Of a stretch of DNA of 64,000 nt, positions 13,271-21,733 are shown piece by piece. Under the pieces are notes generated by a model that was given only the letters and a program-made list of their open reading frames with translations, had not been told where the DNA came from and ran no database searches. Where the stretch lies: NCBI GenBank assembly GCA_964604515.1, contig CAZRZA010000002.1, positions 1,607 to 65,606 of the forward strand. The letters run 5' to 3'. Each line of letters begins with the position of its first letter. Within the stretch, counting starts at the first letter, position 1. The translations under genes and the position numbers were made by a program. This DNA comes from an uncultured Gammaproteobacteria bacterium (GTDB taxonomy: Bacteria > Patescibacteriota > Patescibacteriia > UBA1558 > GWA2-36-10).

Positions 13271-14131
13271 ATGATTAAGGTTAAAGATCTTAAAAAAAAG
13301 ATTAAGCAACTTCAGAAAAAGGTTATTTCTTTAGGAAAAAAAGAGAAGAAAGCCAGAGATCGTTGGAACAAGGCACATAATAAATTTATTAAATCTACTG
13401 GAGATTTAGTGACCATTAAAAGACATGGTACTAAAAAGGAAAGTAAATTAAAAGATATTATTTTGTCTTGGCCAGAAAAATCTATTTTTTTAACAAGTAA
13501 GCGTGATCAAATTAGGAATGATATTTCTGATATTAAAAAACAAATTGATAATTTAAAAAATAAATTATCAGAACTCGTTAAAGACATTGAATCACAGAGC
13601 AAAGAAATAGATGAAAAAGTTAATCAAGTTTTTGCGGCTAATAAAATTGTGATTTCAGCCATAGAAGCGAGAGATTCTTTTTTAGAAAACCATGTTTATA
13701 ATAAACTAGTTGATGAAAACGGTAAAATAAAATCTCAGGTAACTCTTTTAAGTTCTGATGGTAAACGTAAAGTAGTTGTTTTAACCAATACTATTGTTAT
13801 CATTAATCCTGATTTAGCAATTTTAGCCCAAAAGAAGATTGAAAATTTCTTTAGTACCTTTAAAGAAAAAATTGAATCTGAAATGGACAGTGAAACAAAA
13901 TTACTTTATAAAATTGTTTCAGAACTACTAATTGAGAAAAAGAGCTTTAAACCAGGTCAGTATTTATATCAGTTTTTAAATATTAATATTGGCCAAGAAA
14001 GTTACCCTGAATTATATGAAGCGCAAACTTTATTAAAACAAAGTTTAGGTTCTAAAAAGTCAGGTACTTATATAAAACTTTATGAAAGATTTGGTATTAA
14101 AAATTCTTTCAAGCCTTTGAGAACAAAGTGA
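13271..14131 (+). CDS. hypothetical coiled-coil protein
   Basis: 286-aa ORF with strong SD (aaggag), K-rich N-terminus and coiled-coil heptads; no confident family assignment. Confidence 0.35.
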   Translation: MIKVKDLKKKIKQLQKKVISLGKKEKKARDRWNKAHNKFIKSTGDLVTIKRHGTKKESKLKDIILSWPEKSIFLTSKRDQIRNDISDIKKQIDNLKNKLSELVKDIESQSKEIDEKVNQVFAANKIVISAIEARDSFLENHVYNKLVDENGKIKSQVTLLSSDGKRKVVVLTNTIVIINPDLAILAQKKIENFFSTFKEKIESEMDSETKLLYKIVSELLIEKKSFKPGQYLYQFLNINIGQESYPELYEAQTLLKQSLGSKKSGTYIKLYERFGIKNSFKPLRTK

Positions 14132-14213
14132 TTAATCAAAAAAGGGATATTCAACTTTTAAGTATAAAGAATCTATTTGATAAAGAACGAAGTAATCAAT
14201 CAAAAAAGGGATA

Positions 14214-15059
14214 TTATTTAATATCCCTTTTTATTTTATATAATTTTAAAGTATTATATAAGAGCATGGCGACGGTCATTGGGCCTACTCCTCCGGGGAC
14301 AGGAGTAATATGGCTTACTTTTTCAAAGACATCAGTATAATCAACATCTCCAACTATATGTTTTTGATCTATTTTATTAGTACCAATATCAATAATAATA
14401 CTATTTTTTTTAACCATTTCTTTTTTAATAAAGAAAGGATTGCCAATAGCAGCTATTAAAATGTCTGCTTCTTTACTTAATTCAGATAGATTAGTAATAC
14501 TAGGTTTTATTATTTTAGTATGTATATTTTTATCCTCTAATAATTTTTTTAAAGGCTTATAAAAAACATCAGATTTAGAAATAATTAAAGCTTCTTTATT
14601 CTTTAAATCTTCTTTAGTAGCTTCTAATAATTTAATAATACCCAAGGGTAAACCAGGAACAAAAGTATTTTTATTATCTAATATTTTTTCAATATTTTTA
14701 GGATGAAAACCATCAGCATCTTTGTTTATATCAATAGCTTCTATTATTTTATCTGTATTTAAGTGTTTTGGTAATGGTAATTGTATTAAGATAGCATCTG
14801 TATGTTTATCTTTATTAAGAAAGTCTATAGTTTCTAAAACATGTTCTTCTGAAACATCTTTAATCATTAAATATTCATGAAACTCTATACCTACTTTCTG
14901 ACAAGCTTTCTTTTTTAAATTAACATATAAATTAGAAGCAGGGTCTTCTCCAATTAAAATAACAGCTAAATTTGGTTCTAAACTTTTTTGTCTTATTTCT
15001 ACACCTATTTCTTTTTGTATATCTTTAGCTATACTTCTGCCGTCTATTATTTCTGCCAT
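14214..15059 (-). CDS. folD: bifunctional methylenetetrahydrofolate dehydrogenase/cyclohydrolase
   Basis: FolD motifs (ILIQLPLP, NPDxDGFH, TPVPGGVGPMTVAMLL). Confidence 0.9.
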   Translation of the reverse strand: MAEIIDGRSIAKDIQKEIGVEIRQKSLEPNLAVILIGEDPASNLYVNLKKKACQKVGIEFHEYLMIKDVSEEHVLETIDFLNKDKHTDAILIQLPLPKHLNTDKIIEAIDINKDADGFHPKNIEKILDNKNTFVPGLPLGIIKLLEATKEDLKNKEALIISKSDVFYKPLKKLLEDKNIHTKIIKPSITNLSELSKEADILIAAIGNPFFIKKEMVKKNSIIIDIGTNKIDQKHIVGDVDYTDVFEKVSHITPVPGGVGPMTVAMLLYNTLKLYKIKRDIK

Positions 15060-16317: not shown

Positions 16318-16361
16318 AATATATATACTACCATATTTATCTTTTTAGACAATACTATTTA

Positions 16362-16370
16362 TGGTATACT
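16362..16370 (+). promoter_or_regulatory. extended -10 promoter (TGgTATACT)
   Basis: tggtatact upstream of the small membrane-protein ORF; same extended -10 architecture recurs at 16586, 20454 and 21817. Confidence 0.35.
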
Positions 16371-16396
16371 ATATTTATAATAATTTAAGAAAAAAT

Positions 16397-16564
16397 ATGA
16401 AAAATGAAAAAGTAAGAGTAGGGTTATTTTATTTAGCTATGGTTATTGTTATTGGTAGTCATTTATACATGCTAGCCGCTGGTTTACCAGCAGAGCAAAT
16501 GACAGCTCATGCGGTTTTAAATATAGTAGCGGGTATTATATTTGGTGTAGTTTATTATAGATAA
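16397..16564 (+). CDS. small two-TM membrane protein
   Basis: 55-aa ORF MKNEKVRVGLFYLAMVIVIG...IFGVVYYR; start placed after the promoter-like element inside the longer six-frame ORF. Confidence 0.35.
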   Translation: MKNEKVRVGLFYLAMVIVIGSHLYMLAAGLPAEQMTAHAVLNIVAGIIFGVVYYR

Positions 16565-16565
16565 C

Positions 16566-16594
16566 ATTTGTGGGGGGGGGTAAACATGGTATAC
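16566..16594 (+). promoter_or_regulatory. promoter with G8 homopolymer tract in the spacer immediately upstream of an extended -10 (TGgTATACT)
   Basis: ttgtggggggggtaaacatggtatact; G8 at 16572-16579, -10 at 16589-16594. Confidence 0.4.
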
Positions 16595-16623
16595 TATTCT
16601 TATTATAAATTAATTAGAAAATT

Positions 16624-18106
16624 ATGAAAAAATTAATATCTTTTTTTTGTGGTCATAGCATTATGTTCTATATATGCTATACCAAAGGTAAGCAAAGCTT
16701 TTAGTTTTAGAGATTTATTACCTAACTTTTCTGTAAAAACAGAAGCTCAGACTAAGGATGTTGTAGTTTCTAAGGTTGATAAGGTAACCAAAGATTCTGC
16801 GGTCAATGAGTCTAGGAGTTATACAGATTCTAGATTTAATTATTTTGATTCTAGAATTAATACTTTAAATAGTAGTTTTAAGGGACTAGAGAATCAGGTT
16901 AATAATCTAGGAGATATTTCTGATACAGAAAATAATAATACTTTAGATTCTCGTAGTTTAGTAGAAAATCCTATGACTGAGAATTTGGACGGTGGTCAAA
17001 AATGGATAACAAATATTCGTCGTTTACATATAGAAAGTTCAGAGGACTCTAATGTTAATTTTCCAGGTATTCAGGTTTCTATGAATAGTCATAATGATAA
17101 TGCAATAACAGCAGAGACTCATGGTAATAATTCATATGCAGGTTATTTTAACGCTACAGGTAATAATTCATATGCCGGAAACTTTGAGGGCGATGTTAAA
17201 ATAGATGGCGACTTCAATATAAATAGAACATATACAGGATATGAAGGGGATAGCATCTTTAGTGTTTATGATGGTGATATTGTTACTGCTGGTCCAAACG
17301 TTGATATTAATGGAGCAGATTTAACTTTGAATGATGGTAATTTACACTTTAATAATATTGGGTTTCCAGCAATTAGACTAGATGATAATGTGAGCCAATT
17401 TGATATAAGATGGGATGGTAGTTCTTCTTATTATACCTTTAGCAGAGAAGGTTTAGTTATTGCTGATGGTTCATTAGATGTGTATGGTGATATAAGGTCT
17501 AGGCCTGGAAATAAGATTAAGTCTAGTAATTTTTGTGATGGTAGTGGAAATAATTGCTTTAATATTGCGACTAGTACTAGTAATATTGGTACATGGAACT
17601 TGGGCTCTAATTTAAATTTTCATGAAGCTGATTTAGTATTTAGCAGTAATTATGGATCGGGCAGTACGGCCCATATTAAGTTAGAGGATGATGTAGAAAA
17701 TCTTAGAATTGGTTGGTGGGAGTTTAATGATAATAATAATGATTATGCTAGATATAATTTTGGGCAAGATCTTTTCAGGATTTATGAGGGAGATCTTTCA
17801 CTTTATCAAGGTAGTATTGGAATAGGAACAGATAGTCCAAATAGAAATTTACATATTAAAACAAATGAGGGTGATCAATATATGAACGCTGAAATAGATA
17901 TTCAGTCTGGCGATAATAATTACTGGGGAATTTATCAGGATCATAATGATGGTTCTTTAAATTTTTGGCATGAGGACAATAGAGTAATCTTTACTAACGA
18001 AGGCATTGAAACAGATAAAATTGATTTAGGAGAATTATGTTTAGATGATATTTGTGTAGATAGTTGGGGAAAATTAAAGTTAATATTATCAAATATGACC
18101 TATTAA
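16624..18106 (+). CDS. secreted tail-fibre-like repeat protein; N-terminal signal peptide separated by a +1 frameshift in a T8 run
   Basis: ATG 16624 encodes MKKLISFF then T8 (16641-16648); removing one T gives MKKLISFFVVIALCSIYAIPKVSKA (classic signal peptide) in frame with the 485-aa GTG-initiated ORF 16649-18106; body has GNNSYAG repeats and a SIGIGTDSPNRNLHIK motif typical of phage tail-fibre/adhesin proteins. Confidence 0.55.
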
Positions 18107-18126: not shown

Positions 18127-18156
18127 AAAACAGCTCTTTTTAAAGAGCTGTTTTTA
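18127..18156. terminator. bidirectional terminator between convergent genes
   Basis: aaacagctcttt-tt-aaagagctgttt hairpin with flanking A/T runs. Confidence 0.6.
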
Positions 18157-19755
18157 GTTTAATTCTTTAGTCATATAAGTTTCTTCTATTTTATATCCTA
18201 ATTTTTTATAATATTCTCTAACTCCTATACCAGAAATAACGGCTATTTTATTTAATTTATTTTCTTTGGTTATTTCTTCTGCTTTTTGCATTAATTTTTT
18301 ACCTAAACCAACATGTTGAGTTTTACTAATTTCATCATCTTCTTTAGTATGAACTGGAATCATTTTACCATAAACATGTAATTCTCTGACTAAGGAAGAA
18401 TTAATTAATTCAGGGAATATATTCTTTTTACTATTATCATTAAATCTTAATCTTAAGAAAGCATATACTTTATTATCATATTCATAAGAAAGAAAGTATT
18501 CTAAACCCTGAGAAGCTTCGTATTTTATAATTACTAACTCTACTTTATTAATATCTTTTGTTTTACCCTTTACTTCTCGACACCTTAAACAGTGACAGGT
18601 TTGTTTTCTTTCTGCTAATTTTTTTTGTAAGTATTGTCTTAAATTAGTTACTTTATTACCAGCGATAATACTTTCTTCAGGAATATCTCTAATTAATCTA
18701 TTTATTCTAATATAGGGAGGAGTAATTAACTTAACTTTTAATAATAATTCTAATAATTCTTTTTCTGAATATGGTTTATACTTACCATCTTCATACCATT
18801 TATTTAATTGAGCATATTCATTAACTATACAAGGGTATATTTTTATTTGATCAGGTTGTAAGTCAGGAGTATTAAAAGCATATTTAAACATTTTAAGGTC
18901 TTTGTTTGGAGTAGATCCAGGTAAATCAGGCATATAATGATGATCTACCTTAAAACCGACTTCTTTTAATAATTTAGTAGCTTTAATACTATCTTCTATA
19001 GTATGACCCCTTCTAATTAATTTAAGTATTTTATTATCACTATGTTGTATTCCTAATTGTACTCTGGTACAGCCTAAATTACGAAAGTTTTTAATTTCTT
19101 TGGCATCTATATAATCAGGCCTGGTTTCTAAAGTTAATCCTATGACCTTGTACTTAGTTGTTTCATTTATCTTTTGTTCTTCTTTTAAGCTTAAGGCTTT
19201 TCTCTTTTTAGCATTAATAGTATTAGCAGCATAGAAGAGATCTCTAATAAACTTGTCTTGATAATTTTGAGAATAAAAAGACCAGGTACCTCCTAAGATA
19301 ATTAATTCTAATTTATCTACTTGATGACCATTATTTTCTAAAGCCTTAATTCTCATTACCACCTGTCTAACAGGATCAAAGAGGTTTAATTTAGCTCTCA
19401 TCGCTGCTGGTTCATTAGATAAATAGCTTTTAGGCATATCTGGTTCTGTGGGACAATAAACACAAACATGGGGACAGGATTTTTTTGGTTTAGACAAGAC
19501 AGTAATCACAGAAACACCTGATAATGTTCTAACAGATCTTTTTATTAAGTATTTTTCTAAATTAGAATTCTTCTTTAATTTATTATTTTTTACTAATTGA
19601 CGATAAGTAGAAATAAGTGTAGCTTTAGGAAGAGGTGAAATCTTATTTTTATTAAATAATTTACGAGAAGAAATCATAAAATCTCTTTGACTAGTATATT
19701 CTACTTTAGTCAAAGACTTAACTATATCTTCTATTATATTTTGCTTAATATTCAT
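18154..19755 (-). CDS. elp3: Elp3-family radical SAM tRNA wobble-uridine (cm5U) modification enzyme with C-terminal GNAT domain
   Basis: Radical-SAM cluster motif CPHVCVYCP, Elp3 central domain, C-terminal acetyltransferase motif (HVGLGKKLMQKAEEI); 533 aa like bacterial/archaeal Elp3. Confidence 0.85.
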   Translation of the reverse strand: MNIKQNIIEDIVKSLTKVEYTSQRDFMISSRKLFNKNKISPLPKATLISTYRQLVKNNKLKKNSNLEKYLIKRSVRTLSGVSVITVLSKPKKSCPHVCVYCPTEPDMPKSYLSNEPAAMRAKLNLFDPVRQVVMRIKALENNGHQVDKLELIILGGTWSFYSQNYQDKFIRDLFYAANTINAKKRKALSLKEEQKINETTKYKVIGLTLETRPDYIDAKEIKNFRNLGCTRVQLGIQHSDNKILKLIRRGHTIEDSIKATKLLKEVGFKVDHHYMPDLPGSTPNKDLKMFKYAFNTPDLQPDQIKIYPCIVNEYAQLNKWYEDGKYKPYSEKELLELLLKVKLITPPYIRINRLIRDIPEESIIAGNKVTNLRQYLQKKLAERKQTCHCLRCREVKGKTKDINKVELVIIKYEASQGLEYFLSYEYDNKVYAFLRLRFNDNSKKNIFPELINSSLVRELHVYGKMIPVHTKEDDEISKTQHVGLGKKLMQKAEEITKENKLNKIAVISGIGVREYYKKLGYKIEETYMTKELN

Positions 19756-20462: not shown

Positions 20463-20506
20463 ATAGCTATATTAAAATATTTCTAATGTCATTATTTCAA
20501 AAAATT

Positions 20507-21733
20507 ATGAAAAAGATTAAAACTAAAGTAGGGGCTAAGATTTCTACAGAAACAAAGCTACTTTTGAGTGTAGTTATGCTTTTATCTTCCATAGGTTTTA
20601 TGGGATTTGCTAATGGTCTAGTAAGGGCACCGGCAAAAGTTATTGAAAAAAGAATTGTAAAATTAGAAAGAATTACAGAAGAAAACAATAAGAAAATAGA
20701 GAAATTGGTGGAAAAGAAGAGAATATTGAAAAATGAGTTTTTTTCTGGAGGAGAACTTGGTAATACTATTGATGATACTGAAGAAGGAAGTGTAAAATTT
20801 TACTCTGTAGGAACCTTAAACTGTTGTACAACATATGGTAGGTATGGCATGGAAGGATTAGAGGGCGGTGGATGTGCTACTGATAATATGCCAGCTTATA
20901 CAAGCTCTGCTAATGAATGTTGCTATGTAAAAGATTTTTATGAGGAAGCTCATTATGCAGGAGATGATATATACGGTTGTTATGACGAAGATCGTGGGTG
21001 TCAAGAAGACGAATGTGGAGTATGTGGTGGTGATGGCAGTTCTTGTATGGAAGAAGGGGAGCTGTTTGCATGTGATAATAATTCTCAGTGTGGATCTGAA
21101 TTTTGTAATGATAATGGATATTGTGAAGAATATGAAGTGTTTTGCCCTAACGGTGATGAATGTAATGGAGGTCAAACATGCGATAGTGAGTGTATTACCA
21201 ATGGTTTCGCGTACCCTTGTTGTGTCCCTACCTTTATTATTGATAATTCCGTAGATTGTGAGGGCACATTTAATGGAGATGTTGTCTTAGACGAATGTGG
21301 GGTATGTGGCGGTGATAATAGTTCTTGCGCAGACTGTTCTGGAACCCCAAATGGTAATGCTATGTTAGATAATTGTAATACTTGCGATGCTAATCCTAAT
21401 AATGACTGTTCTCTAGATTGTAGTGGTGTTTGGGGAGGTAATGCTTATGAGGATTATTGTGGAGTATGTGATTCTGATCCAGATAATAATAATCAATGCT
21501 CTAATTATTGTTCAGGTCATTCAGATTGTAACACTGATCAATATTGCTATAATCATATTTGTGAAACATATAGGCCAGATGGCTGTTCCTGGAACTTTCC
21601 TTGTGATGAGGGGGAGAGTGATTGTAACTTTAACTCTGATTGTGCTGGTAATTTAGTGTGTGGTACAAATAATTGTAGTTATGGCGGTATAAATGGTGTG
21701 CCAGACTTTGCAGACTGTTGTATGCAGCCATAG
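20507..21733 (+). CDS. secreted/membrane-anchored Cys-rich protein, paralog A of shared-leader family; ADAMTS-like CGVCGGD repeats
   Basis: N-terminus MKKIKTKVGAKISTETKLLLSVVMLLSSIGFMGFANG shared with ORFs 22713 and 23100; coiled-coil stalk; about 60 Cys with DECGVCGGDGSSC / DECGVCGGDNSSC / DYCGVCDSDPDNNNQC repeats. Confidence 0.65.
   Translation: MKKIKTKVGAKISTETKLLLSVVMLLSSIGFMGFANGLVRAPAKVIEKRIVKLERITEENNKKIEKLVEKKRILKNEFFSGGELGNTIDDTEEGSVKFYSVGTLNCCTTYGRYGMEGLEGGGCATDNMPAYTSSANECCYVKDFYEEAHYAGDDIYGCYDEDRGCQEDECGVCGGDGSSCMEEGELFACDNNSQCGSEFCNDNGYCEEYEVFCPNGDECNGGQTCDSECITNGFAYPCCVPTFIIDNSVDCEGTFNGDVVLDECGVCGGDNSSCADCSGTPNGNAMLDNCNTCDANPNNDCSLDCSGVWGGNAYEDYCGVCDSDPDNNNQCSNYCSGHSDCNTDQYCYNHICETYRPDGCSWNFPCDEGESDCNFNSDCAGNLVCGTNNCSYGGINGVPDFADCCMQP

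Follow-up and report, generated by a model that had tools for sequence, protein, structure and literature searches.

The subject of this analysis is a gene for a fiber-like, probably secreted surface protein in a 64-kb stretch of DNA with 28% GC (called the window below, meaning the whole stretch that was analyzed) from an uncultivated marine bacterium of the candidate phyla radiation (CPR; Patescibacteria). Its 485-codon body open reading frame (ORF) occupies positions 16649 to 18106 of the forward strand, on which the other features of the locus described here also lie, and is preceded by two homopolymers, a poly-G tract directly 5' of an extended −10 promoter element and a run of eight T residues (T8) that leaves an ancestral signal peptide out of frame with the body. 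The length of the poly-G tract is polymorphic among near-identical natural sequences, whereas T8 is invariant. The explanation that we favor, with moderate confidence, is that a hypermutable promoter poly-G tract stands beside a fixed frameshift allele that is null or leaky.

The poly-G tract is nine residues long in the window (G9; 16572 to 16580, approximately −30 to −22). It is the only G or C run of at least 7 nucleotides (nt) in the 64 kb, and a run of at least nine Gs appeared in 2 of 100 dinucleotide-preserving shuffles. The original prediction had placed the start of the tract correctly but gave it eight residues and an end at 16579; the extended −10 element TGGTATACT (TGgTATACT) that it recognized downstream is correct as an element but lies at 16587 to 16595, one base to the right of the 16586 to 16594 first reported. 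The spacer between the two is TAAACA, the tract thus ending 6 nt 5' of the TG, and the claim that a G tract stands directly 5' of an extended −10 element was borne out.

Seven further contigs with the same 485-amino-acid (aa) ORF were compared with the window, from ENA (L001, L002, and L014), Logan (L003), and JGI (L015, L101, and L013, the last being one contig with L096 and L100). Four of the eight assemblies carry G9 (the window, L001, L002, and L013) and four carry G8 (L003, L014, L015, and L101), in near-identical sequences. The promoter-proximal tract is genuinely polymorphic in nature, as G8 or G9. The assemblies differ from the window only in a 64-nt insertion-deletion (indel), in three single-nucleotide polymorphisms (SNPs) in glyA (L014), and in the G tract, and the G indel is the sole difference in L003 (4,169 nt) and L015 (1,272 nt). 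Three apparent SNPs relative to L001 and L002 were rejected as alignment-edge artifacts of the 64-nt indel. For A/T runs of at least 7 nt in the same alignments, 0 of 53 comparisons differed in length (23 of them involving runs of at least 8 nt). Both G alleles occur within one pipeline (JGI 3300008625 versus 3300007504 and 3300007512; ENA SAMN10231923 versus SAMN10231912), and the tract lies mid-contig both where it is G8 (L014, L015, and L101) and where it is G9 (L001, L002, L013, and the window). The sample accessions yielded no hits in the literature.

A sister lineage, 81 to 83% identical at the nucleotide level across glyA/folD and the radical-SAM gene, carries G8 at the same position, 6 nt 5' of TGTTATAAT, together with an intact fiber gene of 494 aa. 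The sister tract was G8 in all four assemblies, which came from the same pipelines, and this constancy argues against consensus error at the G8 run. At the corresponding site the other lineages have an interrupted GTGGGTGG (L010), AGGGATAATAAG (L005, L008, and L012), ATACATAGA (L102), or nothing (L004 and L011), and the −10 element is retained in the form TGnTATAMT in all lineages, whatever stands at the tract site. Judging from these alignments, the tract site appears to be a turnover hotspot that holds a long uninterrupted run in two species.

The positions originally given for the ancestral ATG (16624), the T8 tract (16641 to 16648), the GTG at 16649, and the 485-aa ORF at 16649 to 18106 were all exact. 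With T8, the frame opened by ATG 16624 encodes a 26-aa peptide (MKKLISFFCGHSIMFYICYTKGKQSF) and closes at TAG 16702 to 16704, such that an out-of-frame ORF of 26 codons (16624 to 16704) arises; its first eight codons encode the ancestral signal peptide's n-region and the beginning of its h-region. The body frame is blocked on its 5' side by TAA 16634 to 16636, and GTG 16649 is therefore the only possible start of the body. The run arises from Ser-Phe-Phe codons (TCT TTT TTT) and is one T longer than the in-frame T7 (TCT TTT TTT G). Deleting one T brings MKKLISFFVVIALCSIYAIPKVSKA in frame with the body, with FSF following the cleavage site, for a total of 493 aa. By inspection, this T7 reconstruction has the Sec-type pattern of MKK, then LISFFVVIALCSIYAI, then PKVSKA with cleavage before F, in which the n-region is charged, the hydrophobic core spans 16 residues, and positions −3 and −1 are occupied by small residues. 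The original claims that T8 leaves the signal peptide out of frame with the body and that seven Ts fuse the two in frame were thus confirmed.

The window contains 24 A/T runs of at least 8 nt, many of them within intact genes, and T8 by itself is therefore ordinary for this genome. Among the approximately 50 ORFs of the window, T8 is the only homopolymer that splits a gene, which indicates that the assembly is not prone to homopolymer errors. The alternative raised at the outset, that T8 is a sequencing error in the consensus, is contradicted by the presence of T8 in all eight assemblies, which come from differing samples and pipelines.

Orthologues from seven other lineages have an MKK… signal peptide in frame and a T run of four to six residues (T4 to T6). 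The pattern MKK(L/S)I(T/I)F…YAIPK(V/I)(T/S)KA, followed by FSF after the cleavage site, is in frame in L004, L005, L008, L010, L011, L012, L097 to L099, and L102. The run is T4 in L102; T5 in L004 and L011 (MKKSITFLMVIT…), in L005, L008, and L012, and in L010; and T6 in L097 to L099 and in L006 (MKKLMTFFVVIVL…). The signal peptide is in frame in each of these, as is the MNK… signal peptide of the Komeilibacteria members L023 and L028, and the signal peptide proposed from the single sequence was thereby upheld as an ancestral Sec-type signal peptide that is in frame in all orthologues. Since all orthologues are in frame with shorter T runs, T8 is a +1 insertion specific to this lineage, in a run that a substitution had lengthened from T6 to T7. 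The protein cluster at 90% identity, drawn from approximately 15 billion proteins, contained the 485-aa form only, with no 493-aa "ON" (T7) form. The fiber ORF retains 18 of 18 invariant and 11 of 11 nearly invariant columns of the family, and so either the frameshift is recent or the gene is still used. Gene callers place the start of the ORF at GTG 16649 for this lineage, and for L004 and L006 they choose an internal ATG, which resembles the truncated start found here; these calls hide the signal peptide and the frameshift.

The proposal that the T tract acts as a switch found no support in these comparisons. Neither the length polymorphism nor the maintenance of a long tract across lineages that marks an intragenic ON/OFF tract was found, given eight of eight assemblies with T8, no T7 form in the protein cluster, and T4 to T6 in the orthologues. 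The comparison with sibling genomes that had been suggested as a check was divided in its outcome: the G tract is variable, whereas T8 is invariant, and the relatives share the MKK… N terminus.

The TGnTATAMT element was present in all 10 sequences compared, 27 to 30 nt 5' of the ATG in nine of them and 47 nt 5' of it in L097, and this conserved position supports its identity as the −10 element. The fiber promoter is a putative assignment from consensus and conservation; TGnTATAAT-type extended −10 elements recur in the window (15 sites within one mismatch). The sole −35-like element is the weak hexamer TTGTGG (16568 to 16573; TTGCGG in the sister lineage), to which we assign a tentative function and which lies 16 nt from the −10 element with G9, 15 nt with G8, and would lie 17 nt away with G10. 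A Shine-Dalgarno-like motif, even loosely defined, was found for 4 of the 41 long ORFs of the window, and starts follow AU-rich leaders. A short AU-rich leader is therefore normal here, and translation initiation appears to be largely independent of Shine-Dalgarno pairing.

Upstream of the tract, a second copy of the extended −10 element TGGTATACT lies at 16362 to 16370 and probably drives a small ORF of 55 aa (16397 to 16564) with two predicted transmembrane segments; this lineage and L010 are the only ones to have it between glyA and the fiber gene. The fiber promoter is duplicated by a repeated ATGGTATACTAT (16361 to 16372 and 16586 to 16597) that flanks a lineage-specific segment of approximately 225 nt (16361 to 16597). 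This segment occurs only in this lineage and in L010, the latter having a different junction, and no family match was found for the 55-aa ORF that it carries.

We propose that a slippage-type +1 insertion of a T, which turned T7 into T8 within the signal peptide's Phe-Phe codons, is fixed in the strain population. It separates the 485-codon body from ATG 16624 and from the MKK n-region. The body would then be made only from GTG 16649, without the charged n-region, or by rare slippage. Because translation from the ATG ends at 26 codons and the body depends on the GTG or on slippage, the allele would be null or strongly leaky-OFF for export, a defect that is predicted from the reading frames. 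The poly-G tract, for its part, may be a hypermutable simple-sequence repeat, its G8 and G9 forms coexisting in nature on an otherwise identical background. Changes in its length would shift the upstream TTG-containing DNA relative to the −10 element and could thereby tune promoter strength; such spacing dependence is a plausible mechanism by analogy with meningococcal porA, and we infer from it an effect of G length on transcription. Three properties associated with contingency loci were found for the tract: it is a slip-prone, overrepresented homopolymer, it is adjacent to the promoter of a secreted-protein gene, and it is polymorphic in length among near-identical genomes.

In Neisseria meningitidis, promoter phase variation involves a poly-G tract between the −35 and −10 elements of porA and a poly-C tract at opc (van der Ende 1995, cited as reference 24 in PMC5084427, a paper that itself describes variable repeats located in promoters). 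The tract described here resembles that of porA in standing just 5' of the −10 element of a surface-protein gene, in differing by one base between near-clonal sequences, and in having a length that would change the spacing from TTG to the −10 element (15 nt with G8 and 16 nt with G9). It differs in its weak −35-like hexamer, in the extended −10 type of the promoter, in having only two observed lengths, and in being known at the level of sequence, and its host is an uncultivated CPR bacterium rather than a host-adapted pathogen. Campylobacter jejuni NCTC11168 has 29 poly-G/C tracts of at least seven residues in a genome of approximately 30% GC (PMC4965091). It shares with the organism studied here a small AT-rich genome, against whose composition a long G run stands out statistically, the association with a surface-structure gene, and a comparable tract density (one per 64 kb in our case). 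However, the Campylobacter tracts are mostly intragenic ON/OFF tracts with measured switching rates, whereas the one known here is intergenic.

The T8 tract has parallels of its own. N. meningitidis has repeats that lie between alternative starts or whose changes remove a membrane-spanning or signal segment (PMC5084427, Fig. 4a,b). T8 likewise lies between ATG 16624 and GTG 16649, with one length giving a full signal peptide and the other a truncated N terminus, but it has no length polymorphism in eight assemblies and is not conserved in orthologues. In Buchnera and Blochmannia, transcriptional slippage at poly(A/T) tracts, usually of 9 to 10 residues or more, rescues frameshifted genes. Those endosymbionts and the present organism have in common an AT-rich reduced genome, a frameshift at an A/T homopolymer, and an intact downstream ORF; the tract here is only eight residues long.

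The main rival to a hypermutable poly-G tract beside a fixed frameshift allele is that the gene is dead and the tract slips neutrally. T8 would then be an inactivating change at an early stage of pseudogenization, the poly-G tract would have no regulatory role, and its G8/G9 polymorphism would reflect the high rate of neutral indels to which any long G run is subject. We regard this as possible rather than probable, and a number of observations weigh on its side or otherwise against a regulatory role of the tract. The tract is present in only 2 of approximately 8 lineages and thus absent from most. Variation in G length is seen only in the lineage that is already frameshifted, the lineage with the intact gene being G8 in four of four assemblies, as expected for neutral drift, and the G8 and G9 haplotypes need only one event (G9 to G8 or G8 to G9). 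One of the G8 contigs (L003) starts 3 nt before the tract, which places the tract at a contig end. The −35-like element TTGTGG is weak, matching the −35 hexamer at only 3 of 6 positions, and a consensus promoter scan called no −35/−10 promoter at the G tract. Promoters of the extended −10 type can function in the absence of a −35 element; this one may not need it, and a 1-bp shift could then be neutral. No terminator-like site was found by the scan between the small ORF, which has its own promoter copy, and the fiber gene, and read-through from the small-ORF promoter could bypass or blunt an effect of the tract. Against a dead gene with neutral slippage stand a run of eight to nine Gs at the same promoter position in two lineages that are approximately 19% diverged, which at 28% GC is hard to explain without selection, and the absence of further decay in the ORF. 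The interrupted GTGGGTGG at the same place in L010 also counts against it, in that it suggests birth and turnover of the tract.

The remaining readings fare less well. It is decidedly unlikely that, as in the original prediction, both tracts are reversible switches, with G length acting on transcription and T7/T8 turning export ON and OFF at high frequency. Such a scheme would account for the variation of the G tract, the slippage potential rose when an A-to-T change turned T6 into T7, and the placement of T8 between the ATG and the GTG is a geometry known for variable repeats in Neisseria (PMC5084427). However, T8 was constant in all eight assemblies while the G tract changed, the 493-aa ON form is missing from the 90% cluster, no orthologue has a long T tract, and A8/T8 runs are common and stable within other genes of the genome. 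We also consider it doubtful that the poly-G tract is a stochastic volume control of a host-attachment fiber promoter, kept by selection across species, with the T tract as a slower export switch. If that reading is true, an ultrasmall putative episymbiont would use slipped-strand mutation to diversify its attachment apparatus, in the manner of host-adapted pathogens.

That the T8 allele is still functional is fairly unlikely. It could be so through a start at GTG 16649, with MVIALCSIYAIPKVSKA serving as a short signal peptide, or because the full signal peptide is restored in a fraction of products, either by transcriptional slippage at U8 or by a ribosomal shift of +1 at UUU UUU U. AT-rich endosymbionts are known to rescue genes by slippage at poly(A) tracts, the body ORF is uninterrupted and has all of its conserved residues, the scarcity of Shine-Dalgarno motifs (4 of 41) makes initiation at GTG behind an AU-rich leader conceivable, and tRNA-Phe can re-pair perfectly at +1 on U8. 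On the other hand, the GTG product has no positively charged n-region, initiation at the GTG would face competition from the overlapping ATG ORF upstream, and the many in-frame A8/T8 runs in essential genes imply low slippage at length eight. A frameshift-stimulating hairpin 3' of T8 was considered and rejected (z = −1.7; consensus energy, −2.5 kcal/mol; no compensatory pairs). Because the slippery tract is absent from all orthologues, which is not the pattern of programmed recoding sites, and the hairpin has no covariation support, programmed recoding appears unlikely. Finally, an artifact of sequencing or assembly, either a miscall at T8 or an Illumina poly-G error behind G8/G9, is very improbable. 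The contig L003 begins close to the tract, assemblies often break at error-prone sites, and L014 and L015 are short contigs of probably low coverage, all of which would fit an error; against it, T8 is identical in eight assemblies, G8 and G9 are each found mid-contig in several assemblies and both within one pipeline, the sister tract is G8 in each of its four assemblies, and none of the comparisons contains a further indel.

Scans of the protein and its relatives against Pfam, PHROGs, and NCBIfam returned no significant family and no S74 domain, and the relatives are unnamed or hypothetical, the few named ones coming from Komeilibacteria/Parcubacteria. The family architecture begins with a signal peptide and a conserved N-terminal part of approximately 120 aa, in which a helical (coiled-coil-like) stretch is predicted; a hypervariable middle then leads to a conserved C-terminal domain with the motif GIGTxxPNxxLH…NAEIDIQSG…W…FW…C…C. 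The family profile (A3) matched the trimeric beta-helix of Bd2133 (PDB 8OND) with an E value of 2.7e-7, via a repeated G-x-G-I-G-T-x-x-P-x-x-x-L-H-V. Matches to the coiled-coil stalks of YadA and Vomp were weak and nonsignificant. The window protein alone had no significant match in the PDB (weak YadA stalk; E value, 0.06), and a search with the N-terminal profile added only two short fragments. An AlphaFold2 monomer model built from a 15-sequence alignment was poor (predicted local distance difference test score [pLDDT], 41), with a helical N terminus.

Bd2133 of Bdellovibrio bacteriovorus is a mosaic adhesive trimer (MAT) fiber, related to phage tail fibers and involved in prey handling (PMC10769870). 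Like MAT fibers, the protein studied here has a signal peptide and combines a conserved N-terminal module with a distal part that varies, and both organisms depend on contact with other cells. However, the full-length product is 493 aa rather than approximately 1,000 aa, lacks an S74 domain as judged from Pfam, and has a predicted helical N terminus in which the approximately 130-aa beta-rich N-terminal domain of MATs was not detected. From its sequence features it is probably a secreted, trimeric, fiber-like surface protein. The original label of a tail-fiber-like secreted protein is reasonable and acceptable at the family level, given the match of the family profile to the Bd2133 beta-helix and the signal peptide in orthologues; membership in the MATs proper is unestablished.

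The host would be a Komeilibacteria-like marine CPR bacterium, as suggested by the glyA product, which is 77 to 83% identical at the protein level to that of metagenome-assembled genomes (MAGs) of Komeilibacteria/Parcubacteria in a scan made for taxonomy and synteny. This lineage shares the divergent arrangement of the fiber gene beside glyA with its relatives, as far out as named Komeilibacteria MAGs. The closest glyA relatives (L016 and L017; 83% and 80%) belong to MAGs labeled "uncultured Gammaproteobacteria," although at least L016 has a CPR-like GC content of 27%; these and other such GTDB records are probably mislabeled Patescibacteria bins. A scan of GTDB with a protein pattern found no relative of the fiber protein, the window genome apparently not being a species representative.

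Several neighboring features were recorded. Downstream of the fiber gene, the reverse strand encodes an ELP3-like radical-SAM plus Radical_SAM_C protein of 533 aa (18154 to 19755), which is kept in all close relatives and in Komeilibacteria MAGs. A gene for a Cys-rich secreted or membrane-anchored protein (20486 to 21733) is strain variable around 21353 to 21444 and is a second variable surface-protein gene near the fiber gene; the L001 copy is approximately 84 nt longer (436 versus 415 aa as called) and has 10 mismatches over the next 682 nt. At 14134 to 14215, in the terminator region of the convergent genes 13271 to 14131 and folD, a 64-nt segment between 18-nt direct repeats AATCAAAAAAGGGATATT occurs in the window alone; L001, L002, L100, and L101 do not have it. 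The contig L006 (1921 to 2940) is 100% identical to L097 for 1,921 nt and then diverges inside the fiber gene, where the product is cut to 299 aa and followed by a TumE-family gene, through rearrangement or tip replacement or because the contig is chimeric. The apparent frameshift in L006 was accordingly rejected as a homopolymer event. An Rfam scan of the window returned tRNAs only.

Simple-sequence contingency tracts are a known kind of element, of which we found no report for this phylum; a full-text literature search found no paper tying phase variation to Patescibacteria or CPR. CPR bacteria, which cannot be cultivated by themselves, presumably live attached to other cells, and to our knowledge almost nothing has been established on the regulation of their attachment proteins. 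The T8 frameshift is a real allele and should not be "polished" out of assemblies, and the length-polymorphic promoter poly-G tract at a conserved fiber-like gene is a concrete candidate for phase variation in CPR.

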